From contig QHXM01000063.1 of NCBI GenBank assembly GCA_003222945.1, positions 186-64,185 on the forward strand: 64,000 bases of DNA. Reading direction: 5' to 3'. Numbering within the stretch: the stretch's first letter is position 1; each line of letters starts with the position of its first letter. The stretch comes from Acidobacteriota bacterium (GTDB taxonomy: Bacteria; Acidobacteriota; Blastocatellia; Pyrinomonadales; Pyrinomonadaceae). The position numbers and the translations under genes were made by a program. Below the pieces are notes generated by a model. That model had not been told where the DNA came from and did no database searches. It saw only the letters and a list, made by a program, of their open reading frames with translations. Of this stretch, positions 28,492 to 36,899 are shown one piece after another.

Positions 28492-28510
28492 TCACCGCCC
28501 ATGCGGGCAG
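28492..28510 (-). promoter_or_regulatory. box A: CTGCCCGCATGGGCGGTGA (minus-strand reading)
   Basis: 66 nt upstream of the 28426 start. One of five copies of CTAYCC-N4-GGGCGGTGA. Confidence 0.55.
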
Positions 28511-28555
28511 ATAGTTTCGCGCTCGAGCCATGCAAAATATTTGAAGAGAGAGTTT

Positions 28556-28574
28556 TCACCGCCTGTTCGGATAG
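28556..28574 (-). promoter_or_regulatory. box B: CTATCCGAACAGGCGGTGA
   Basis: 130 nt upstream of the 28426 start, 64 nt from box A. The most degenerate copy. Confidence 0.45.
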
Positions 28575-28597
28575 TTGCTGCGTTTGGCACTGCGTTT

Positions 28598-28642
28598 CGG
28601 AAAGGAAAAGGCCACCGCGGAGTTTGCATCTCACGCGGCGGC
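28598..28642 (-). terminator. intrinsic-terminator-like hairpin after the 90-aa gene
   Basis: Minus-strand GCCGCCGCG-loop-CGCGGTGGC (9 bp with one G-U that is valid only on this strand), followed by CTTTTCCTTTCC. Confidence 0.5.
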
Positions 28643-28715
28643 ATTAGGGGCAGGCAGTTCGTGGTAGGCTAAAAGGCAGGGGGAAACCTCGTGTCGTTCT
28701 GCTTGTTCTTCACAG

Positions 28716-28988
28716 TTAAAAAATTGACATTGGAGTCGAAGCCGTGCAGGTGTAAGACTGTCCGGGGTTACCAAGACCTTTGACGCTGTCGCCCGGCTTG
28801 AGCGCACTGTCCAACTCTATGACGCCCTTGTCGCCATCGCTCGAATTCCAGTTAATCTTGTGACCCTTCGGAAGCGTTTGGTGGGTCGTGTTGGTGATCC
28901 AGGGCGTTTTGGCAACGTCCTGTTGCGAGCCGGTATTGACGCATTTCAGTGCGACCGTCCTCACACGAATTTTGCTGTTATTGTTCAT
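28716..28988 (-). CDS. 90-aa hypothetical protein
   Basis: ATG start with its own upstream box C and downstream terminator. MNNNSKIRVRTVALKCVNTGSQ... has no signal peptide or recognised motif. Confidence 0.5.
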   Translation of the reverse strand: MNNNSKIRVRTVALKCVNTGSQQDVAKTPWITNTTHQTLPKGHKINWNSSDGDKGVIELDSALKPGDSVKGLGNPGQSYTCTASTPMSIF

Positions 28989-29068
28989 GACGCTTGCGGC
29001 GTCAGTTGTGTTCTTTCAAAACTTTCGGCTTGCGACGGCACACAGATTCGCAGAGATCAAGCGAAGTG

Positions 29069-29087
29069 TCACCGCCCGTATGGGTAG
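29069..29087 (-). promoter_or_regulatory. box C: CTACCCATACGGGCGGTGA
   Basis: 81 nt upstream of the 28988 start and downstream of the hairpin that ends the regulator gene. Confidence 0.55.
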
Positions 29088-29154
29088 CAATGTGAAAAGA
29101 TTTTTGAAGGTGAAAAATGGGGGCGATAAGTGATTGGGCAGGACGTAGTGTGGA

Positions 29155-29222
29155 AGTCCAAAGTCCAAGGTCCAAAGTCAAACGGCTCTTGCCTTGAGAC
29201 ATTGGACATTCGACATTGGACT
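29155..29222. repeat. AGTCCAA-word imperfect hairpin at the 3' end of the response-regulator gene
   Basis: AGTCCAAAGTCCAAGGTCCAAAGTC ... GACATTGGACATTCGACATTGGACT. The right end touches the stop codon at 29222. Confidence 0.55.
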
Positions 29223-29908
29223 TAATTAACTAATCTATCGCGCAGGGCTTTCGCTACGGCTTCGCTCTTTGAATGGACCTGAAGCTTGTCGTAGATGTTG
29301 CGCATGTGGAATTTGATTGTGTTGATGCTCACACCCAACTCTTCGGCGGACGTTGTGTAGTTGTGCCCGTCAACCAGAAGTTTCAGCAGGCGCGTTTCGT
29401 GCGGCGTGAGTTCGTAATCGGCGCGCTCAGGGGGTCGTATGTCACGAAAGAGAGTGATGACGCGGGAGGCTACTTCTGGAGACATAGGAGCGCCGCCCGT
29501 CACAGCCTCTTTAAGACACTCAAGAAGCCGTGCGGGACTTGTTCTCTTCAATAAATAGCCGCACGCTCCGGCGCAAAGGGCGTCGAATATGCGGTCGTCG
29601 TCGTCATAGACCGTCAATATCAGGATGAGCATTTCCGGGTATCGCTCTTTCAGTATTTTGATGCCCTGGATACCGTCCATTCCGGGCAAGCCTATGTCTG
29701 ACAGAACAACGTCCGGCATCTCGCGGCTTATCTGCGCCAATGCCTCTTCCATAGAGCGATAGCTGCCCGTGCAGTGATAGCCTTCCGTTCCGTTTATAAG
29801 CATCGCCAGACCTTCGCGTATGTCGCGCTGGTCCTCTACGATTGCAGTTTTGATGAGCGATTTAGTGTCCATTCCGATTATTGCGTTGCCGGTTTGCATT
29901 AACTTCAT
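29222..29908 (-). CDS. NarL/FixJ-family response regulator (receiver + LuxR-type HTH)
   Basis: Receiver with VEDQ...VVLSDIGLPGMDG. C-terminal LTPHETRLLKLLVDGHNYTTSAEELGVSINTIKFHMRNIYDKL is a LuxR HTH. Confidence 0.9.
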   Translation of the reverse strand: MKLMQTGNAIIGMDTKSLIKTAIVEDQRDIREGLAMLINGTEGYHCTGSYRSMEEALAQISREMPDVVLSDIGLPGMDGIQGIKILKERYPEMLILILTVYDDDDRIFDALCAGACGYLLKRTSPARLLECLKEAVTGGAPMSPEVASRVITLFRDIRPPERADYELTPHETRLLKLLVDGHNYTTSAEELGVSINTIKFHMRNIYDKLQVHSKSEAVAKALRDRLVN

Positions 29909-29965
29909 AAGCTCCCTTCGCTCGTCTGCGAACCTTATGGAGCATACGCCTCAAACTCTCATGCA

Positions 29966-29984
29966 TCACCGCCCGTTCGGGTAG
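29966..29984 (-). promoter_or_regulatory. box D: CTACCCGAACGGGCGGTGA
   Basis: 58 nt upstream of the regulator start. Its TGA is the stop codon of the kinase ORF. Confidence 0.55.
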
Positions 29985-32900
29985 GGAGTTTCAAAAGATG
30001 AGAGATGGCCGAGCGGAACTTTCAGGGTGATGCTAGTCCCCTCGCCCGGTCTTGAGTCTATCTCGAAGGAGCCGCCCAAATCTTCTGCGCGCCTGCGCAT
30101 ACTTATAAGACCGTTGCCGCCCTTTGAATAACCGGCGTGCTCTGAGACCTCTTTTACGTCAAAGCCTTTTCCATTATCGCTCAATTTCAGAATGAGCCAG
30201 CCAGCCTCCGGGTAAAACTCTATACCGGCTTCGGTGCAGCCGGAATGCCTTGCGATGTTGTTGACGCTCTCCTTGAAGATAAGGAAAAGCTCGCGGCGCA
30301 CGTTTGCGCCTAGCTGTATGCCGCCGTCTGCGTGGGGCGCTCGCAAACTGAAACGTATCTTGCACGACGAAAAGATGTCGCTCGCAAAGCGTCGCATCCT
30401 CTGAAGAAGATCGCTCAGATGATCCTTCTTAGGGTTGATCGCCCAGACGATGTCGCTCATTGCCTCGACCAACTCGTTCGAGACGGCGGTTATCTTCGTC
30501 AGTGGCTCTGCGAGGCGTCCATCGTTGCCGTTCATCTGCTGTTGTGCGACTTCGCTGAGGATGACTATCTGCGTGAGGCTCGCGCCTATGTCGTCGTGCA
30601 GGTCTGTGGCTATGCGCGTGCGCACGCGCTCCAACTCGCGCAGGCGTTCTTCGCGCGCTCTGAGCAGTGCCTCCTCTGCCTGCTTGCGCTCTATGAGTTG
30701 TCCGATTTGAGCGCCAACATTAGACATCCTGCCATTTTGCGAAGGTGTGTTGAATCGTTCTGGCACTAAAGTCGTCGAAAGAGCGCGGAGGCCAGACATC
30801 CTGACAGCGCAGCCGCTCGCTATCTTCATCAACGTTCCAGATGACACCTATGTCCCAATTGAAGACCTTACAGATCGCCTCAAGAATCTTGGGCGCAGCT
30901 TCATGCGGCGTCGTGGCTTCAGCCAGAATGCTCGTCACCTCATATTCAAGCTCAAGCACACGGTTGGCTTTACTTAACTCCGAGCGCTGCTCTGTGAGCG
31001 TTTCAGTCAGGAGCCTGGATTCCGTGAGCGCCGCGTCCAGTTCCTTCATTCGATTGGCGCGATAGCGGTCGAGCGCTATGACAATTGAGCCGACAAAGAA
31101 CGCGGCCAGCGCGAGAAACCACCAGCGCTGCCAGACGGGCGGCCAGATTGTGAAGGTGATGCTGGCAGGCGCGAGGCTCTCTATGCCCTCGGCGTTTACT
31201 GCGCGCACAAGAAAACGGTAAGTTCCGGGCGCGAGCCGGGCATAGCTCACTGTGCGCTCTGTCGAAGGCGCGCTCCAATCCCGGTCCGCGCCTTCAAGCT
31301 TGTACTGGTAAAGCAGCGTTCCGCCCGTGTTGAAATCTATGCCGAAGAACTCTATCTGCAAATTGCTCTGCGTGGGCGAGAGTTCTAGCGAGTTGATTTC
31401 AGTGCTGCCAAGTTCAGGAAGGGCGCGGCTCTCGCCAGCGATGCGTAGCGCCCCTAATCTGATGGGCGGCGGCGTCAACTGAAGTTCAGGCTCAGGCACG
31501 AGCCGCGACAATCCGTTTGGCGTGCCGAACCAGATTGCGCCGGTACGGTCCCTGTAGGCGACGTTGACGAAATCTCCAACCAGTCCTTCTCTGACCGAAT
31601 AGTGCTGTATGCGCTTGGCGTCGCGCGAGAGGCGATCCACGCCGCGCGCCGTGCCTGCGTAGATGTTGCCGTAAAGGTCTTCTGTGATGGAGCGGACATT
31701 GTTGCTCGACAGCCCGTTGCTAGTGTTGTAAGTGATGAAGCCGGGATGCTCTGCATTCGTATCATCAACGCGGCTCAAACCATTGTCGGACGAAGCAATC
31801 CATAACCTACTCTGGCTGTCTAAATAGAGGGCTGTGATAAGTCCGCGAGGCAAACCGTCTGCGGTCGTAAATTCCCTGAAGCTTCCAGACGAATAACGCG
31901 CCATCCCGCCCTGATAGAAGCCTAGCCACAGATTGCCGTTGCGGTCCTCGGCAAACGACGAGACAGCTTTGTCCGTGCGGAAGCCATCCGAATCGGACAA
32001 GGCGTGAAATTTTTTCGTGGCACGGTCCCATACGGACAATCCGTTTCGTCCTCCGGCTTCGCCGCGCGTGCTGATCCACAGGTTGCCCTTCGAGTCTTCG
32101 AACATGTGGAACATCATGCTGCCACTTAATCCGTCGCCCATCGTATAGACAGCAAGCGGGCGCTCGTGTGCCAGAGCGTTGAAGTCTTCTGAAGCGGCGA
32201 ATTGGTAGAGCTTGCCGTTCGTGAGAAACCACCACTCGCCCGTGTGGTCCTGAAAGGCTGTGTTAGAAGTCCAGACAGCCTTCGCGTCCGGCGATAACTG
32301 CGGGTGAATCGTTCGGAAACCTTTGCCGTCAAACTCGCTCAGGAAATAATGGTCCTCCGCGACATAGAGCTTATGGCCAACGGTTTCTCCTATGGCGAGA
32401 ATCGGAAAATTTTTTAAGCCGTCGGCGTCGCCATAAGTGCTGATGCCGTGGCGCTCCAACCGCATAAGACCCGTAGTCCAGCCGAGCCAGAGATTTCCGC
32501 CTGTGTCCTCGACCATCGGACCGAAGCCTTTCTGCAAACCCTGCGCGGTGGTATGGGTCAGAGAGTTCACTAATCGGCTCCGGCTTTATAATGTAGATGC
32601 CGGATGCGCGTCCGGCCCAGATTAGACCCGTGCGATCTTCGAGTATGGAAAGTCCGCTCGACATGCGCTGCCCGAAGTCTGCGCTATAAAGAATCTCCCG
32701 CCCGTCCGGCAGCCGACGCATGACACCCAATGAAGTGGCGAGCCACAGGCTTCCGTCCTTTCCTTCGCACATGGTGACGATGTCGAACTTGCCGGAGGCA
32801 TCGGCGGGCAGGTTCAATTCAACCTTGCGCTCAGAGACTTTTCCGTCCTCCTCTTCCAGAAGAGAGAGAGCGCCGCCGCCTATCCACAGATTGCCCTCGC

Positions 32901-33336
32901 GGTCTTCGTAGATACTGGCACGGTCGATGTCTACGCGCTCGGCGTTGAGAGTCGGGCGGTCAGTGTCCGAGGTCTTATCAGCGACGGGAATGGCGTTTGG
33001 GTCGAAGCGGTAAACGCCGCCCGTCGTACTAATCCAGTAGATGCCTTTGCGCGTCTCGAAAATCTGTTCGATGCCGGGTGGCGAGTCCTGATTGCCGACC
33101 TGATAGGTGACGAAGCGCGCACCGTCGAAACGGCTCAACCCGTCGCGCGTGCAGAACCACAGGAAGCCGTGCGAGTCGCGCATTAGAAAGTTGATGAAGT
33201 TACTGCCGAGGCCGTCAGCCGAGGTGTAGCTCCTGACGGGCAGCCGTTCGGCGTGCGCGACATCGAACGACACGACCAGCATCGCGCATAAGAACAGAAG
33301 AGAGAGAACGGGGCTGCGCCTCTTGGTAACGCTCAC
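29966..33336 (-). pseudogene. beta-propeller (Reg_prop)/Y_Y_Y/TM/GAF/HisKA_3/HATPase sensor histidine kinase split into three ORFs
   Basis: ORFs 32371-33336 (signal peptide plus propeller repeats), 30720-32570 (propeller, Y_Y_Y-like, TM WWFLALAAFFVGSIVIAL, GAF start) and 29966-30847 (H-box ATDLHDDIG, HATPase GGNGLISMRRR). Frame change at about 32571-32588. The second junction, at about 30735-30745, truncates the GAF domain. Confidence 0.75.
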
Positions 33337-33430
33337 AGAGTCTCCTCAAGCACGAGGGTAAGAACGTAAGGCTGGACCTGTTAATACTACGGCGCTGAAG
33401 TTTTACATAAGTAGCGGAAAGGTTCAACTT

Positions 33431-33570
33431 AAAAGCAGAATTCAGAAGCCAGAATGGGAAAGGGCCGCAAGCCAGTTTTCAGTTTTCAGTTTTAGTTTTG
33501 AGTTACGAGCCTTCTGAAAACTCAACACTGAAAGCTACTCTATTTATTCTGAATTCTGTATTCTGCTTTT
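33431..33570. repeat. composite palindromic element: CAGAAT-type outer element with nested GAAAACT-type hairpin
   Basis: AAAAGCAGAATTCAGAAGCCAGAATGGG...[CAGTTTTCAGTTTTCAGTTTTAGTTTTGAGTTACGAGCCTTCTGAAAACTCAACACTGAAA]...TTATTCTGAATTCTGTATTCTGCTTTT. Near-identical, in reverse orientation, to 58104-58244. Confidence 0.8.
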
Positions 33571-33575
33571 TTCTC

Positions 33576-33911
33576 TCAAGGCATTCTGTGCTCGCCTGAG
33601 ATTGTGAATCGCGCGGCCTCTTTGCCTCCTGCGCGCAACCAACTGAAAAATCGTTTTAGGGAGAGCCTGATCGTAGATTGCTGTGGGCGCGCCTGCGTCC
33701 TTTCGAGTTGTTCAGCCTCTGTGACAAGCTGACGAAAAGTGTAATATTCCTCGTCTGTGATTGCATCGAACAGGTCTTCGTCCATGTTCTCCATTGTGCG
33801 CGAGGTCGTGCAGATGGCGAATAGTGTTGCGCCCGCCGGAACATCCTCGCGCCTGTCCACGACGGCGAAATTAAGATAACGCGGTTGGCCTGTGGCATAG
33901 ATGACTCTCAT
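33576..33911 (-). CDS. 111-aa hypothetical protein
   Basis: ATG start with box E upstream. Acidic middle (MENMDEDLFDAITDEEYY). No family recognised. Confidence 0.5.
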   Translation of the reverse strand: MRVIYATGQPRYLNFAVVDRREDVPAGATLFAICTTSRTMENMDEDLFDAITDEEYYTFRQLVTEAEQLERTQARPQQSTIRLSLKRFFSWLRAGGKEAARFTISGEHRMP

Positions 33912-34012
33912 AACTATCCTCTGCCAGAGCCGGATAAAATTTCCTTGAGCGAGCTACTCAAACCGAATCCGTCAACTGACAATGAATAATTACACTACCG
34001 AAAGGAAGAGAG

Positions 34013-34031
34013 TCACCGCCCATGTGGGTAG
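34013..34031 (-). promoter_or_regulatory. box E: CTACCCACATGGGCGGTGA
   Basis: 102 nt upstream of the 33911 start. Confidence 0.55.
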
Positions 34032-34113: not shown

Positions 34114-34929
34114 TCAGGCTCTTCTGATAAACTTCGCAGCGATCCAGCCGAGCAGTATAAGAACAGAAGCAATGATCCAGTTGTAGCGGCTGCCGTAGGT
34201 GTTCGCGTAGTGATTGCTAATCATCAGGAAGACTGTGGGGACGACCATGAAGGTGTTGTGCTTGGAGCTAAGTTTCGCGCGCGCGCCAAGCCGTGCGTCC
34301 ACTTCGCGCCCCTCTTTTGTCGCCGCAATCATGCGCTTCTGTGCCGGTAAGATTCTCATCCAGACATTCGACACCATGATCGTTCCGAACATCGCGCCCA
34401 AGTGAAGATAAGCCCAGCGCCCGCTCAGCACGTGAGTCAAACCATAGGTTGCGCCTACGACGAGAATGTAAGCGACGACGGCAAACAATATCTCGTTCCT
34501 GCCTAGCGGCGACCGGACCAGCAAATCATAGACAACCCAGCCGACGACGAGCGTGCCTATGCCTATAAGGATGGCCGTAGAGCCTTTGATGTCCAGCACG
34601 TCCGGGTCAACGATGCCTGAGCCGCCGCCCAGGTAGGCCATCAGCGTTAGAAGCAGAAAGCCGCTTATCCAAGTCATCGCGGCCTCCCAGCGAAACCAGT
34701 GCAGGGAGCGCGTGCCCGGCCTCTTCTCCTTCTCTACAACGTAGAAGCCGCCGCTGTGAACCATCCAGACCTGCGCCTTCTCGTCGCCGCCACTCTTCTC
34801 TTCTTCATGAAGGCGCGCGTCGAGCCAGGTGAAATAGTAGGTCGTCCCAACCCACATGATGGCCGCGAAGACGTGCACCCAGCGAAAGATTAGATTGAGC
34901 CAGAGGTTCAACTCAGGATTAATGTCCAT
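34114..34929 (-). CDS. puuD: urate hydroxylase PuuD-like membrane protein (DUF989)
   Basis: Start moved to the ATG at 34929, 4 nt after the uraH stop. LNLIFRWVHVFAAIMWVGTTYYFTWLDARL and several TMs match my recollection of the PuuD/DUF989 family, and it sits in a purine-catabolic operon. Confidence 0.65.
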   Translation of the reverse strand: MDINPELNLWLNLIFRWVHVFAAIMWVGTTYYFTWLDARLHEEEKSGGDEKAQVWMVHSGGFYVVEKEKRPGTRSLHWFRWEAAMTWISGFLLLTLMAYLGGGSGIVDPDVLDIKGSTAILIGIGTLVVGWVVYDLLVRSPLGRNEILFAVVAYILVVGATYGLTHVLSGRWAYLHLGAMFGTIMVSNVWMRILPAQKRMIAATKEGREVDARLGARAKLSSKHNTFMVVPTVFLMISNHYANTYGSRYNWIIASVLILLGWIAAKFIRRA

Positions 34930-34933
34930 CCAA

Positions 34934-35278
34934 TTAGCTCCCGCGATACGTGGAATAGCCGAACGGATTGAGAAGTAGCGGAACGTGGTAATGCTCGTCT
35001 GCATCATGAACGAGAAAGACTACGGCAACGTGCGGATAGAAACTTCTAACGCTCCTTGCGTCGAAATAAGTTGCCGTATCAAAGACCAGGCGATAGACGC
35101 CCGGCTGCAAATCGAAATCATCCGGCAACAAATCCTTGAGTCGGCCATCCGCATCAGTCACACCTGACGAAAGCTCACGCCAGCCTCCGTCCTCTTCCTG
35201 CACATCCAAATGCACAGGCACACCCGCTGCCGGATGACCTTGCGAAGTATCAAGCACATGAGTAGTGATTGCGCTCAT
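34934..35278 (-). CDS. uraH: 5-hydroxyisourate hydrolase (transthyretin-like)
   Basis: ITTHVLDTSQGHPAAGV start and diagnostic C-terminal YSTYRGS; 114 aa. Confidence 0.9.
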   Translation of the reverse strand: MSAITTHVLDTSQGHPAAGVPVHLDVQEEDGGWRELSSGVTDADGRLKDLLPDDFDLQPGVYRLVFDTATYFDARSVRSFYPHVAVVFLVHDADEHYHVPLLLNPFGYSTYRGS

Positions 35279-35282
35279 ATCT

Positions 35283-35390
35283 AAAAGCAGAATTCAGGAG
35301 TCCGCAATTCAGAAGTCAGAAGGGATAAGGCTGAGAATCGTTTCTGTTTTTATTCTGAGTCTTGTGTTCCGAGTTCTGTATTCTGCCTTT
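35283..35390. repeat. CAGAAT-type palindromic element
   Basis: AAAAGCAGAATTCAGGAGTCCGCAATTCAGAAGTCAGAAGGGATAAGGCTGAG...TTATTCTGAGTCTTGTGTTCCGAGTTCTGTATTCTGCCTTT. The right arm encodes the last 13 codons of uraD, and the left end lies 4 nt from the uraH ATG. Confidence 0.8.
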
Positions 35391-35895
35391 CTATCAACTT
35401 CTTCAATCTAAGCTGTGTGATCTTGCGTTGCTCCTCTGCGGCGTTGCGAATCTCAATCTCGGCGTCGTTCATTAATCGCTCTTTCAGAATTGCAAGCATC
35501 TCGTATGCCGTTTTTCCTGTGGCGCAGATGATGTAGATGTAGCCGAACTTTTGCAAGTATTCTCGGTTGAGCGCGGCAAGCTCGCGGCGCACGTCTTCAT
35601 CAGCCGAGCGAGTTCCAGACTGCTCTTCCGCAGACCACTTGCCTGCTTCCTCAGCCTGCGCGCGTTCGGATTTCTTCTCGCCGATTTTGGGATGGCGACT
35701 GAAAGCCTCAAGCCAATCCTCTTCATCGAGCGCCCACCAGACGGCATCAGCCTTCTCAAACAACTCCTGAAGATTATGAGAGGGTCGCTCCTTTGCCATG
35801 CGCCGCGCCCAGAGAGTAGAGCCGCAAGCCTTCAAGAGTTCGCTTTCGGCCTCTTCTTGAGAGAGCGCGTTCAATCTTTCGAGACTCGTTTTCAA
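35350..35895 (-). CDS. uraD: 2-oxo-4-hydroxy-4-carboxy-5-ureidoimidazoline (OHCU) decarboxylase
   Basis: LNALSQEEAESELLKACGSTLWARRM...HPKIGE motifs; 181 aa; 4-nt overlap with the allantoicase gene. Confidence 0.85.
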   Translation of the reverse strand: MKTSLERLNALSQEEAESELLKACGSTLWARRMAKERPSHNLQELFEKADAVWWALDEEDWLEAFSRHPKIGEKKSERAQAEEAGKWSAEEQSGTRSADEDVRRELAALNREYLQKFGYIYIICATGKTAYEMLAILKERLMNDAEIEIRNAAEEQRKITQLRLKKLIERQNTELGTQDSE

Positions 35896-36899
35896 TCTTC
35901 GCTTCCCTTTATCGTCCCGTAGATTCGTAGGCGGGAAACTCCGCCGTCCGGGTAAATCTTAAATCGAACATGCGTGACCGCGCCCGCTGGCTTAATCTCT
36001 TCTTCATAGAAGTGGCGCGTGTGAGCTTGAAGTTTCGTTCGCGGAAGAATCTCTTTCCAAGCGAGTGACGAGATGTTTGATTCGTCAACCTTTTTATCTT
36101 CGTCGTCGCAAGCCTCTAGCGAACAGGCGTCTGGGTAGTTGCCTTTGAAGTGTGACGTATCAACTTCGATTCGCCTTATCTCTCCCTTCGCGCCGAGCTT
36201 AATCACGGACCAATCGTATCCAGGTCCGCGTCTTCGCTTCGTCTCCCAGCCATCGCTCATGTTTGCCGCGCGTCCGGGCATAATCAGATTGTGGCGATGC
36301 CCGAAGAACATATCGCTGCATGTGAGAACGAGCGCGCCGTTCTCTGCCGCAGCCAGATCAATCTCGCCTCTGCGTGAAAGAGCGCTCCAATCAGGCACGA
36401 CCTGGCCGTAAACTCTTAGCCGCGCAACGCCGCCGTCCGGGTAAATCTTAAATCGCAGGTGAGTGAAGCGCTCGTTCGCTTCAACCGCAAACGGGTTCTG
36501 CGAGTCGCCTTTAAGTTGAGAGATGGGAAGAATCTCGGTCCACTGAATCTCATCGCTCGTCAATCTCTCGACATCTGGGTTGCCTTCAATCGCGCACGCT
36601 TCAATTGAGCATTGCTCTGGATAATTGCCTCTGAAGAAACTCGTGTCGCAGACCACGCCGCGAATGATTCCGGGAAGTCCAAGACGAATAATGCACCAAT
36701 CGAAACCGGGCGTGCGGCGGCGGCGCGACTCCCAACCGTCCATCCATTTGCCGCGATCCGTGTACTTGCCCTCTATGAATATGGGCGCACTCGGCTTCAA
36801 CAGATTCTCCTTCGGCGCGAAAAAATCATCGTTCGCATAAAGCACTGCGCCGCCAAGACGCTCCGCAGCAAGATCAATCAACTCCGTAAAGTCCGTCAC
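35892..36899 (-). CDS. alc: allantoicase
   Basis: Two tandem allantoicase repeats (DGWESRRRR / DGWETKRRR; both end IYPDGGV.RLR.YG); 335 aa. Confidence 0.9.
   Translation of the reverse strand: MTDFTELIDLAAERLGGAVLYANDDFFAPKENLLKPSAPIFIEGKYTDRGKWMDGWESRRRRTPGFDWCIIRLGLPGIIRGVVCDTSFFRGNYPEQCSIEACAIEGNPDVERLTSDEIQWTEILPISQLKGDSQNPFAVEANERFTHLRFKIYPDGGVARLRVYGQVVPDWSALSRRGEIDLAAAENGALVLTCSDMFFGHRHNLIMPGRAANMSDGWETKRRRGPGYDWSVIKLGAKGEIRRIEVDTSHFKGNYPDACSLEACDDEDKKVDESNISSLAWKEILPRTKLQAHTRHFYEEEIKPAGAVTHVRFKIYPDGGVSRLRIYGTIKGSED

Follow-up and report, generated by a model that had tools for sequence, protein, structure and literature searches.

Acidobacteria of the Blastocatellia/Pyrinomonadaceae are abundant in soil and, to our knowledge, almost unstudied with respect to gene regulation. 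A stretch of DNA from one of them (assembly GCA_003222945.1, contig QHXM01000063.1, positions 186 to 64,185; the whole 64,000-nt stretch is called the window below) raises the question of what reads a short box that occurs there five times. All five copies lie on the minus strand in front of genes of the same strand, and together they span 5.5 kb around a gene for a NarL/FixJ-family response regulator that adjoins its sensor kinase gene. The box is likely a class-II-type activator operator of this adjacent regulator, joined to a housekeeping-type promoter and including a case of positive autoregulation. What was computed in favor of this reading comprises the motif, the promoter architecture, the linkage to the regulator, the conservation of the target genes, and the co-variation of the operator with the regulator's recognition helix.

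Within the window, the pattern CTAYCC-N4-GGGCGGTGA had five matches at up to two mismatches, where 0.12 were expected, and none of 100 shuffled controls reached five. Allowing three mismatches added no copy in the 64 kb, the core GGGCGGTGA occurred four times, every time within a box, and the degenerate dyad CYRCCC-N4-GGGYRG recovered four of the five boxes and no other site in the window at up to one mismatch. The inventory of the original prediction, which had been drawn up by eye, thus held in full: five copies in the same orientation (Table 1), distances of 66, 130, 81, 58, and 102 nt from boxes 1 to 5 to the respective start codons, a kinase stop codon overlapped by box 4, and no further copy. 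When the five copies were aligned with 56-nt flanks, conservation was confined to the box, as expected if it is not part of a longer mobile repeat. The four central nucleotides had been regarded as a free spacer; they read R-H-A-Y instead.

Architecture of the box

The box was delimited by comparison across genomes. Regulator orthologues were fetched from soil metagenomes by protein similarity, and the 16-bp dyad was the sole criterion for calling a box in front of their genes, which gave 54 non-identical boxes. Positions 1-16 form a 6-4-6 inverted repeat, CYRCCC-N4-GGGYRG, with four to six of the six arm positions complementary. The imperfect dyad proposed earlier was therefore real, but its register (TACCC-N4-GGG..GT.A) was not, and the last bases of the box, (G)TGA, which had been counted as part of the dyad, belong to a -35 hexamer. 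This hexamer, GTGACn at positions 16-21, is followed by a 17-nt spacer and a -10 of the form TAnnnT. At positions 17-19, T, G, and A occur in 41, 51, and 36 of the 54 boxes, and positions 39-44 read T-A-a-g-c-T in 51, 51, 36, 40, 38, and 51 of them, with TAnnnT beginning at position 39 in 51/54. Among 28 acidobacterial boxes aligned on the box, the only extra conservation was a C directly after it and T-A-w-n-n-T about 20 nt further on, neither of which was conserved in 38 non-acidobacterial chance matches. Outside the -10, the information content of the flanks was close to zero in both the acidobacterial and the metagenome alignments.

The dyad abuts the -35 with a 1-bp overlap and leaves the -35, spacer, and -10 free. 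If transcription starts 7 nt past the -10, the dyad is centered at about -42.5. Spacing and position, reckoned from predicted starts, thus fall within the ranges of a sigma-70-type promoter with a class-II-positioned activator site (spacer of 17 +/- 1 nt, centre from -41.5 to -43.5), and the conserved -10, TAAGCT, matches three of six consensus positions. A generic sigma-70 consensus scanner missed the box promoters because its threshold was nine matches out of 12, and it returned eight promoter-like sites in the window vs. 5.7 expected in shuffles; terminator-like sites found by a generic scan numbered nine, vs. 9.9 in shuffled controls. Because the consensus scan was uninformative, the promoter model was taken from the comparative matrices.

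Box 2 has no -10 at the correct spacing and lies 64 bp, or about six helical turns, upstream of box 1. For these reasons it is probably an auxiliary upstream site, centered at about -106.5 of the box 1 promoter. A tandem pair of boxes 63 bp apart, resembling boxes 2 and 1, is also found in another locus (L129), and in the genome loci the AGGCGG right arm of box 2 is seen again in boxes that follow the regulator gene.

In the proposed mechanism, a sensor kinase with propeller and Y_Y_Y domains would phosphorylate the regulator, which would dimerise on the 16-bp dyad (half-site 5'-CYRCCC). Centered at about -42.5, the dimer would lie immediately next to both sigma region 4 and the alpha C-terminal domain and so activate otherwise weak promoters. 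The genes driven in this way would be that of the regulator itself, from a promoter overlapping the end of the kinase gene, as well as two small open reading frames (ORFs), orf111 and orf90, and the gene of a giant beta-helix/Calx surface protein. We infer direct binding, activation rather than repression, phosphorylation dependence, and the transcription starts from the sequence comparisons. For phosphorylation-dependent activation and autoregulation, the grounds are the presence of the phospho-acceptor residues (D70, T98, and K121 of the regulator align with NarL D59, S87, and K109), the fixed register of operator and -35, the weak -10 TAAGCT, and the class-II geometry of relatives.

The same operator could conceivably serve repression, with the regulator blocking RNA polymerase at the -35, a signal relieving or imposing the block, and negative instead of positive autoregulation as the outcome. 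The site does touch the -35 hexamer, NarL-family regulators can repress, and a -35 with TGAC is not very poor, such that basal transcription in the absence of an activator is conceivable. On the other hand, the dyad stops where the -35 starts and leaves the core promoter elements uncovered, and a -10 such as TAAGCT, with half of the consensus positions matched, is typical of activator-dependent promoters. Moreover, the register is fixed in 51 of the 54 promoters, and a centre at -42.5 corresponds to class-II activation, comparable to NarL activating the yeaR promoter from a site at -43.5 (PMC10853779), and not to occlusion. We therefore consider repression unlikely and retain the activator operator as the preferred explanation.

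Linkage to the regulator and to its recognition helix

When one genome from each of 185,579 species was scanned for exact matches to CTACCCRNAYGGGCGGTGA, 58 loci were obtained, roughly a chance number by our own estimate. Of these, 19 belonged to Acidobacteriota, for the most part to Pyrinomonadaceae and Blastocatellia, and in 13 of the 19 the box adjoins orthologues of the kinase-regulator pair, usually lying over the kinase stop codon and 30-80 nt before the regulator start. In this usual arrangement a second and slightly different box, CTACCCAAACAGGCGGAGA, which is like box 2 of the window, is found just after the regulator gene and before the gene of a secreted protein of about 310 aa. The 80 regulator loci from soil metagenomes, which were retrieved by regulator protein similarity alone and from which the 54 boxes above were taken, mostly have a box upstream of the regulator gene. 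Conservation of the box upstream of regulator orthologues, on which the original prediction depended, was thus borne out at the same position in both genome and metagenome loci.

Some single loci deserve mention. In L048 (2998-3724), the system is decayed to a C-terminal regulator fragment beside an N-terminal kinase fragment, with an intact box and a gene for a 113-aa secreted protein downstream. Two metagenome-assembled genomes (MAGs) labelled Blastocatellia/Chloracidobacterium have a perfect box with a correctly spaced TATTCT -10 (L005, position 6261; L015, position 1520). No convincing ORF was found within 250 nt downstream of either, and these boxes could drive a small RNA or a distant gene.

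Box 4 overlaps the last five codons of the kinase gene and its stop codon (Y-P-N-G-R-stop). Every kinase of this class ends in ...YPNGR-stop, since its last codons come from the box. In the reading frame of the kinase, the regulator's operator and -35 give Y/H-P-N-G-R-stop, which is also found at the kinase 3' ends of L028, L003, L029, L057, L052, and L141, and the TGA stop codon of the kinase is part of the -35 hexamer of the regulator promoter. Hence, the C-terminal tail of the kinase is dictated by a DNA site.

Across lineages the box takes the general form C-Y-R-C-x-x, N4, x'-x'-G-Y-R-G, then TGA. Lineages differ at the inner positions of the arms, with corresponding changes on both sides as would suit a homodimer, but neither the TGA of the -35 nor the -10 varies. 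Arm variants include CCACCC/GGGTGG, CTACCT/AGGTGG, CTGCAT/ATGCGG, CTACAT/ACGTAG, CTACGR/GCGTAG, and CTATCT/AGACGG. When 78 loci were sorted by two residues of the recognition helix and the dyads of each class were counted, helix N..K went with CYRCCC/GGGYRG (class CCC; 22 boxes in front of the regulator gene and 20 at other sites), N..S with CYACCT/AGGTGG (CCT; 21 and 20), N..N with CTGCAT/ATGCGG (GCAT; 5 and 0), H..S with CTACRN/NYGTAG (ACRN; 10 and 5), and T..A with CTATCT/AGACGG (TCT; 3 and 3). The table of helix class by dyad class, which covers 61 boxes upstream of the regulator gene, is diagonal with a single off-diagonal match. The second variable residue (K/S/N/A) aligns with Lys188 of NarL and the first (N/H/T) with Ser185. 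In a pairwise alignment with E. coli NarL, K199, F200, and R203 of the window regulator align with K188, V189, and K192, which contact bases in NarL-DNA structures (PMC10853779). Additionally, each specificity switch is followed by several separate promoters in the same genome. These loci may represent a natural allelic series in which two helix positions reprogramme half-site positions 4-6 (CCC, CCT, CAT, CRN, TCT) and all operators of the regulon follow, a reading that we put forward tentatively, at slightly less than even chances. If the relation between residues and bases is causal, it would provide a readable recognition code for the LuxR-type helix-turn-helix together with a documented case of whole-regulon operator re-wiring.

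The co-variation also bears on the suggestion, made as an alternative in the original prediction, that the box is an extended -35 read by an alternative sigma factor, such as one of the extracytoplasmic function (ECF) type, encoded elsewhere and without involvement of the regulator. That suggestion was correct in that the 3' end of the box acts as a -35 at a fixed distance from the -10, but the promoter is of the ordinary sigma-70 type, GTGACn-N17-TAnnnT. Both elements are of the housekeeping type, and the position matrices contain only TGAC and TAnnnT, with no sign of the ECF signatures AAC (-35) and CGT (-10). A monomeric sigma region 4 would not need a symmetric 16-bp dyad with arms that change together. 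Furthermore, the arms change in step with the recognition helix of the neighboring regulator, to whose gene the box is physically linked in genome after genome. An alternative sigma factor is therefore very improbable, and the operator of the adjacent regulator remains the better account of these data.

The least probable explanation is a box without regulatory function, be it a mobile or repeat fragment, a duplicated remnant of the kinase 3' end, or a small RNA hairpin. In its favor, each of the five copies is readable as [Y/C]-P-[NHY]-[G/R]-R-stop, with the variable bases at codon positions 1 and 3, and the arms could pair as a 6-bp stem. Against it, the copies share nothing past the box except the -10 and are thus not parts of a longer repeat, and four of them lie between genes, where stop codons close this frame a short way upstream. 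GGG-CGG is never swapped for synonymous codons, which points to constraint on the DNA itself, and the position of the boxes before the predicted transcription starts keeps them out of the RNA. In addition, the stem of 6 bp contains a mismatch, no Rfam family matches at the boxes, and the dyad form is kept in other lineages with completely different arms. A miniature inverted-repeat transposable element (MITE) or repetitive extragenic palindrome (REP)-like interspersed repeat was ruled out by the absence of shared flanks. A coding-level explanation of the intergenic boxes was likewise ruled out by the upstream stops, the invariant GGG-CGG, and the differing arms elsewhere; box 4 does encode the kinase C-terminus.

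Several points weigh against an activator operator as set out above. The whole of this explanation is computational, and the -10 elements of boxes 3 (GAATCT) and 5 (TAATTA) are imperfect, while box 2 has none at the right distance. The requirement for an exact GGGCGGTGA biases the sample of genome loci toward the box class of the window, and the distribution of boxes in the source genome is known from 64 kb. On a receiver-domain tree the classes of helix and box come close to monophyly, and the diagonal therefore reflects about four to five independent specificity switches, not 78. Lastly, the kinase of the window is disrupted, being split over three frames (33336-32371, 32570-30720, and 30847-29966). 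Compared with the intact 1080-aa orthologue in L141, about 81 aa are absent at ~32555-32569 and there are two frame changes, the second between ~30900 and 30709 in a truncated GAF-like insert. The gene is either a pseudogene or the victim of a MAG assembly error. The circuit in the source genome may accordingly be inactive or run by cross-talk, or the disruption may be an artifact of assembly.

Targets and surrounding genes

The families of the giant protein, orf111, and orf90 recur downstream of regulator orthologues across several box classes, each gene lying behind a box of the local class that is oriented toward it. Orthologues of the giant protein are found downstream of regulator orthologues in at least 15 loci. 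Homologues of orf111 lie behind boxes of other classes in L093, L113, L133, and L138, and those of orf90 lie behind boxes downstream of regulator orthologues in L112, L114, and L116. The gene order of the window, from orf111 through the kinase (intact there) and the regulator to the start of orf90, recurs in L141, where boxes occupy the three corresponding positions. The L141 box before orf90 is orthologous to box 3, with 82% identity in the flank, and a homologous box precedes the orf111 orthologues of both L141 and L140. A search started from orf111 gave the same picture as that started from the regulator. In L113 (7399-10843) and L105 (plus strand), the giant protein carries, fused at its N-terminus, an orf111-like domain of ~55-75 aa in place of its first ~246 residues, suggesting a functional link between the two families.

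A compact, autoregulated regulon of the regulator, the giant protein, and two small ORFs had been proposed. The regulator and its set of targets found support in linkage, recurring targets, and helix co-variation, but strict compactness did not hold. Boxes are found far from two-component genes in L034, L043, and L140, and in L140 the orf111 homologue lies behind two boxes with the two-component genes not adjacent. Relatives also have extra targets, namely a ClpB-like AAA_2 ATPase, seen independently in two loci, a globin, an AurF-like protein, a secreted protein of the NosD-like type, and a protein with an FGE-sulfatase domain. No common biological theme could be derived for the targets other than that of surface and secreted proteins.

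Table 1. Boxes, predicted promoters, genes, and hairpins of the locus (window coordinates; -35 and -10 elements and transcription starts are predictions).
Feature	Position	Strand	Description
Hairpin, further	34110-34040	minus	
Box 5	34031-34013	minus	dyad 34031-34016 CTACCC-ACAT-GGGCGG; -35 34016-34011 GTGACT; in front of orf111
Box 5 promoter	33992-33987	minus	-10-like TAATTA; N18 spacer; predicted transcription start ~33981
orf111	33911-33576	minus	111 aa; conserved regulon target
Hairpin after orf111	33570-33431	minus	-46.4 kcal/mol, z = -4.9; probable terminator
Kinase promoter	33427-33400	minus	box-less, sigma-70-like; TTGAAC-N16-TAAAAC, read by eye
Sensor histidine kinase	33336-29966	minus	Reg_prop propeller, Y_Y_Y, transmembrane segment, partial GAF, HisKA_3, HATPase_c (Pfam)
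Box 4	29984-29966	minus	dyad 29984-29969; -35 29969-29964 GTGATG; regulator's own promoter
Box 4 promoter	29946-29941	minus	-10 TATGCT; N17 spacer; predicted start ~29934
NarL/FixJ-family response regulator	29908-29222	minus	receiver + GerE/LuxR helix-turn-helix; recognition helix INTIKFHMRN
Hairpin after regulator gene	29222-29155	minus	-36.8 kcal/mol, z = -6.1
Box 3	29087-29069	minus	dyad 29087-29072; -35 29072-29067 GTGACA; in front of orf90
Box 3 promoter	29049-29044	minus	weak -10 GAATCT; N17 spacer; predicted start ~29037
orf90	28988-28716	minus	small secreted-protein family member
Hairpin after orf90	28642-28598	minus	-24.7 kcal/mol, z = -3.8
Box 2	28574-28556	minus	CTATCC-GAAC-AGGCGG; degenerate, weakest copy (2 mismatches)
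Box 1	28510-28492	minus	dyad 28510-28495 CTGCCC-GCAT-GGGCGG; -35 28495-28490 GTGACT; in front of giant protein
Box 1 promoter	28472-28467	minus	-10 TAATTT; N17 spacer; predicted start ~28460
Giant secreted protein	28426-24842	minus	1194 aa; beta-helix, Calx-beta (x3), DUF4214 (Pfam); conserved regulon target
Hairpin after giant gene	24836-24762	minus	-44.6 kcal/mol, z = -5.7

The regulator belongs to the NarL/FixJ family by its Pfam domains (Response_reg, 1.6e-23; GerE, 2.2e-12) and by all of its relatives in PDB and NCBIfam, and it scores below every NCBIfam equivalog cut-off (112 vs. 250 bits for the NarL equivalog). The kinase gene has a box-less promoter of its own in front of it, which suggests that expression of the kinase does not depend on the autoregulated promoter of the regulator. 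Neither orf111 nor orf90 has a match in Pfam or NCBIfam. The orf111 protein is identical to an NCBI protein annotated as 'MAG: Acidobacteria bacterium' (DMF68_03145), its 16 homologues are all acidobacterial or metagenomic, and its AlphaFold2 (AF2) model (predicted local distance difference test score, pLDDT, of 79) has no PDB fold match with E < 7. orf90 lacks a signal peptide, while its homologues (L112 4346-4759, L114, L116) start with a clear one. Since a stop codon also stands directly upstream of its ATG, orf90 may be truncated.

The three hairpins that had been thought to insulate the units (28598-28642, 29155-29222, and 33431-33570) all fold well beyond shuffled controls, and so do two more, the five having z-scores from -3.4 to -6.1. 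The hairpins at unit ends are long and imperfect, are built from short tandem units (GTCCAAT, GGATGA, CAGAAT, CGGAAT), and mostly lack a T-run, which looks like a distinctive terminator style of the source genome. Directly upstream of box 5 lies a purine/urate catabolism operon (34114-36899, minus strand) encoding allantoicase, OHCU decarboxylase, a transthyretin-like HIU hydrolase, and a Urate_ox_N membrane protein. Its synteny with orf111 is kept in L140 (1-5761), even without the two-component genes. An Rfam scan of the whole window gave two tRNAs and one Acido-Lenti-1 RNA (RF01687; 59910-59957, plus strand; 44.4 bits vs. a gathering score of 37), with nothing at the boxes.

Significance and comparison with known systems

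The proposed mechanism is a textbook one, a conventional gene switch with a NarL/LuxR-type class II operator, and what is new is this regulon in a poorly studied phylum; a limited literature search found no description of this acidobacterial system. The value of the work lies in a well-supported annotation and a useful dataset more than in surprise. It provides a promoter model for the group (GTGACn-N17-TAnnnT, plus the predicted operator), and it delimits the regulon of a widespread two-component system with a propeller sensor, whose members are the regulator, the giant protein, and two small families, joined in relatives by a globin and a ClpB-like ATPase. It also provides an operator whose bases serve at the same time as the final codons of the kinase gene, and lineage-specific pairs of operator and helix as material for testing how a LuxR-type helix-turn-helix reads DNA.

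The 7-2-7 consensus of E. coli NarL is TACYYMT-N2-AKRRGTA, with inverted heptamers 2 bp apart. TACCCAT and TACCCAC of the boxes had been read as NarL-type heptamers, a view that did not survive: the full TACYYMT occurs only in box 3 (TACCCAT), the right arm reads GGGCGG(T), and 8 nt instead of 10 separate TAC from GTA. The heptamer rule of E. coli NarL was accordingly rejected for its register and its spacing. What the two systems do share, particularly when NarL at yeaR is considered, is a receiver with a LuxR-type helix-turn-helix (28% identity over 205 aa), a dimer site centered 42-44 bp upstream of the start and abutting the -35, variable helix residues that align with base-contacting residues of NarL, and a half-site that begins with TACCC, cf. 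TACYYMT. They differ in the dyad, 6-4-6 vs. 7-2-7, in the partner kinase, a propeller/Y_Y_Y sensor instead of a NarX-type nitrate sensor, and in the regulator itself, whose bit score is far under the NarL equivalog cut-off.

The lux box of LuxR/TraR-type activators is a 20-bp dyad centered at -42.5. The window system resembles it in the position of the dyad, in its predicted reading by a GerE/LuxR dimer, in the overlap with the -35, and in positive autoregulation, which is a prediction here. Moreover, the CCT-class variant CCACCTG-AA-CAGGTGG resembles the ends of the lux box, ACCTG...CAGGT. In contrast, the window dyad has 16 bp and a recognizable -35 (TGAC) is kept adjacent to it, and LuxR and TraR are activated by ligands, not by phosphorylation. 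Among solved structures, those of the VraR/LiaR type are the closest by sequence, VraR (5HEV) being the best PDB match of the regulator (E = 2.9e-27). These systems also pair a HisKA_3 kinase with a NarL-family regulator, and VraR and LiaR autoregulate and control small envelope-related regulons. However, they are Firmicutes systems with intramembrane-sensing kinases and other operators, and orthology is not implied.

In the hybrid two-component systems of Bacteroidetes, Reg_prop/Y_Y_Y periplasmic sensors are fused with the kinase, a receiver, and an AraC-type DNA-binding domain. The window system has the same periplasmic sensor, a double propeller with Y_Y_Y, and the predicted control of adjacent genes for surface or secreted proteins is another likeness, while its kinase and its NarL-type regulator are separate proteins.

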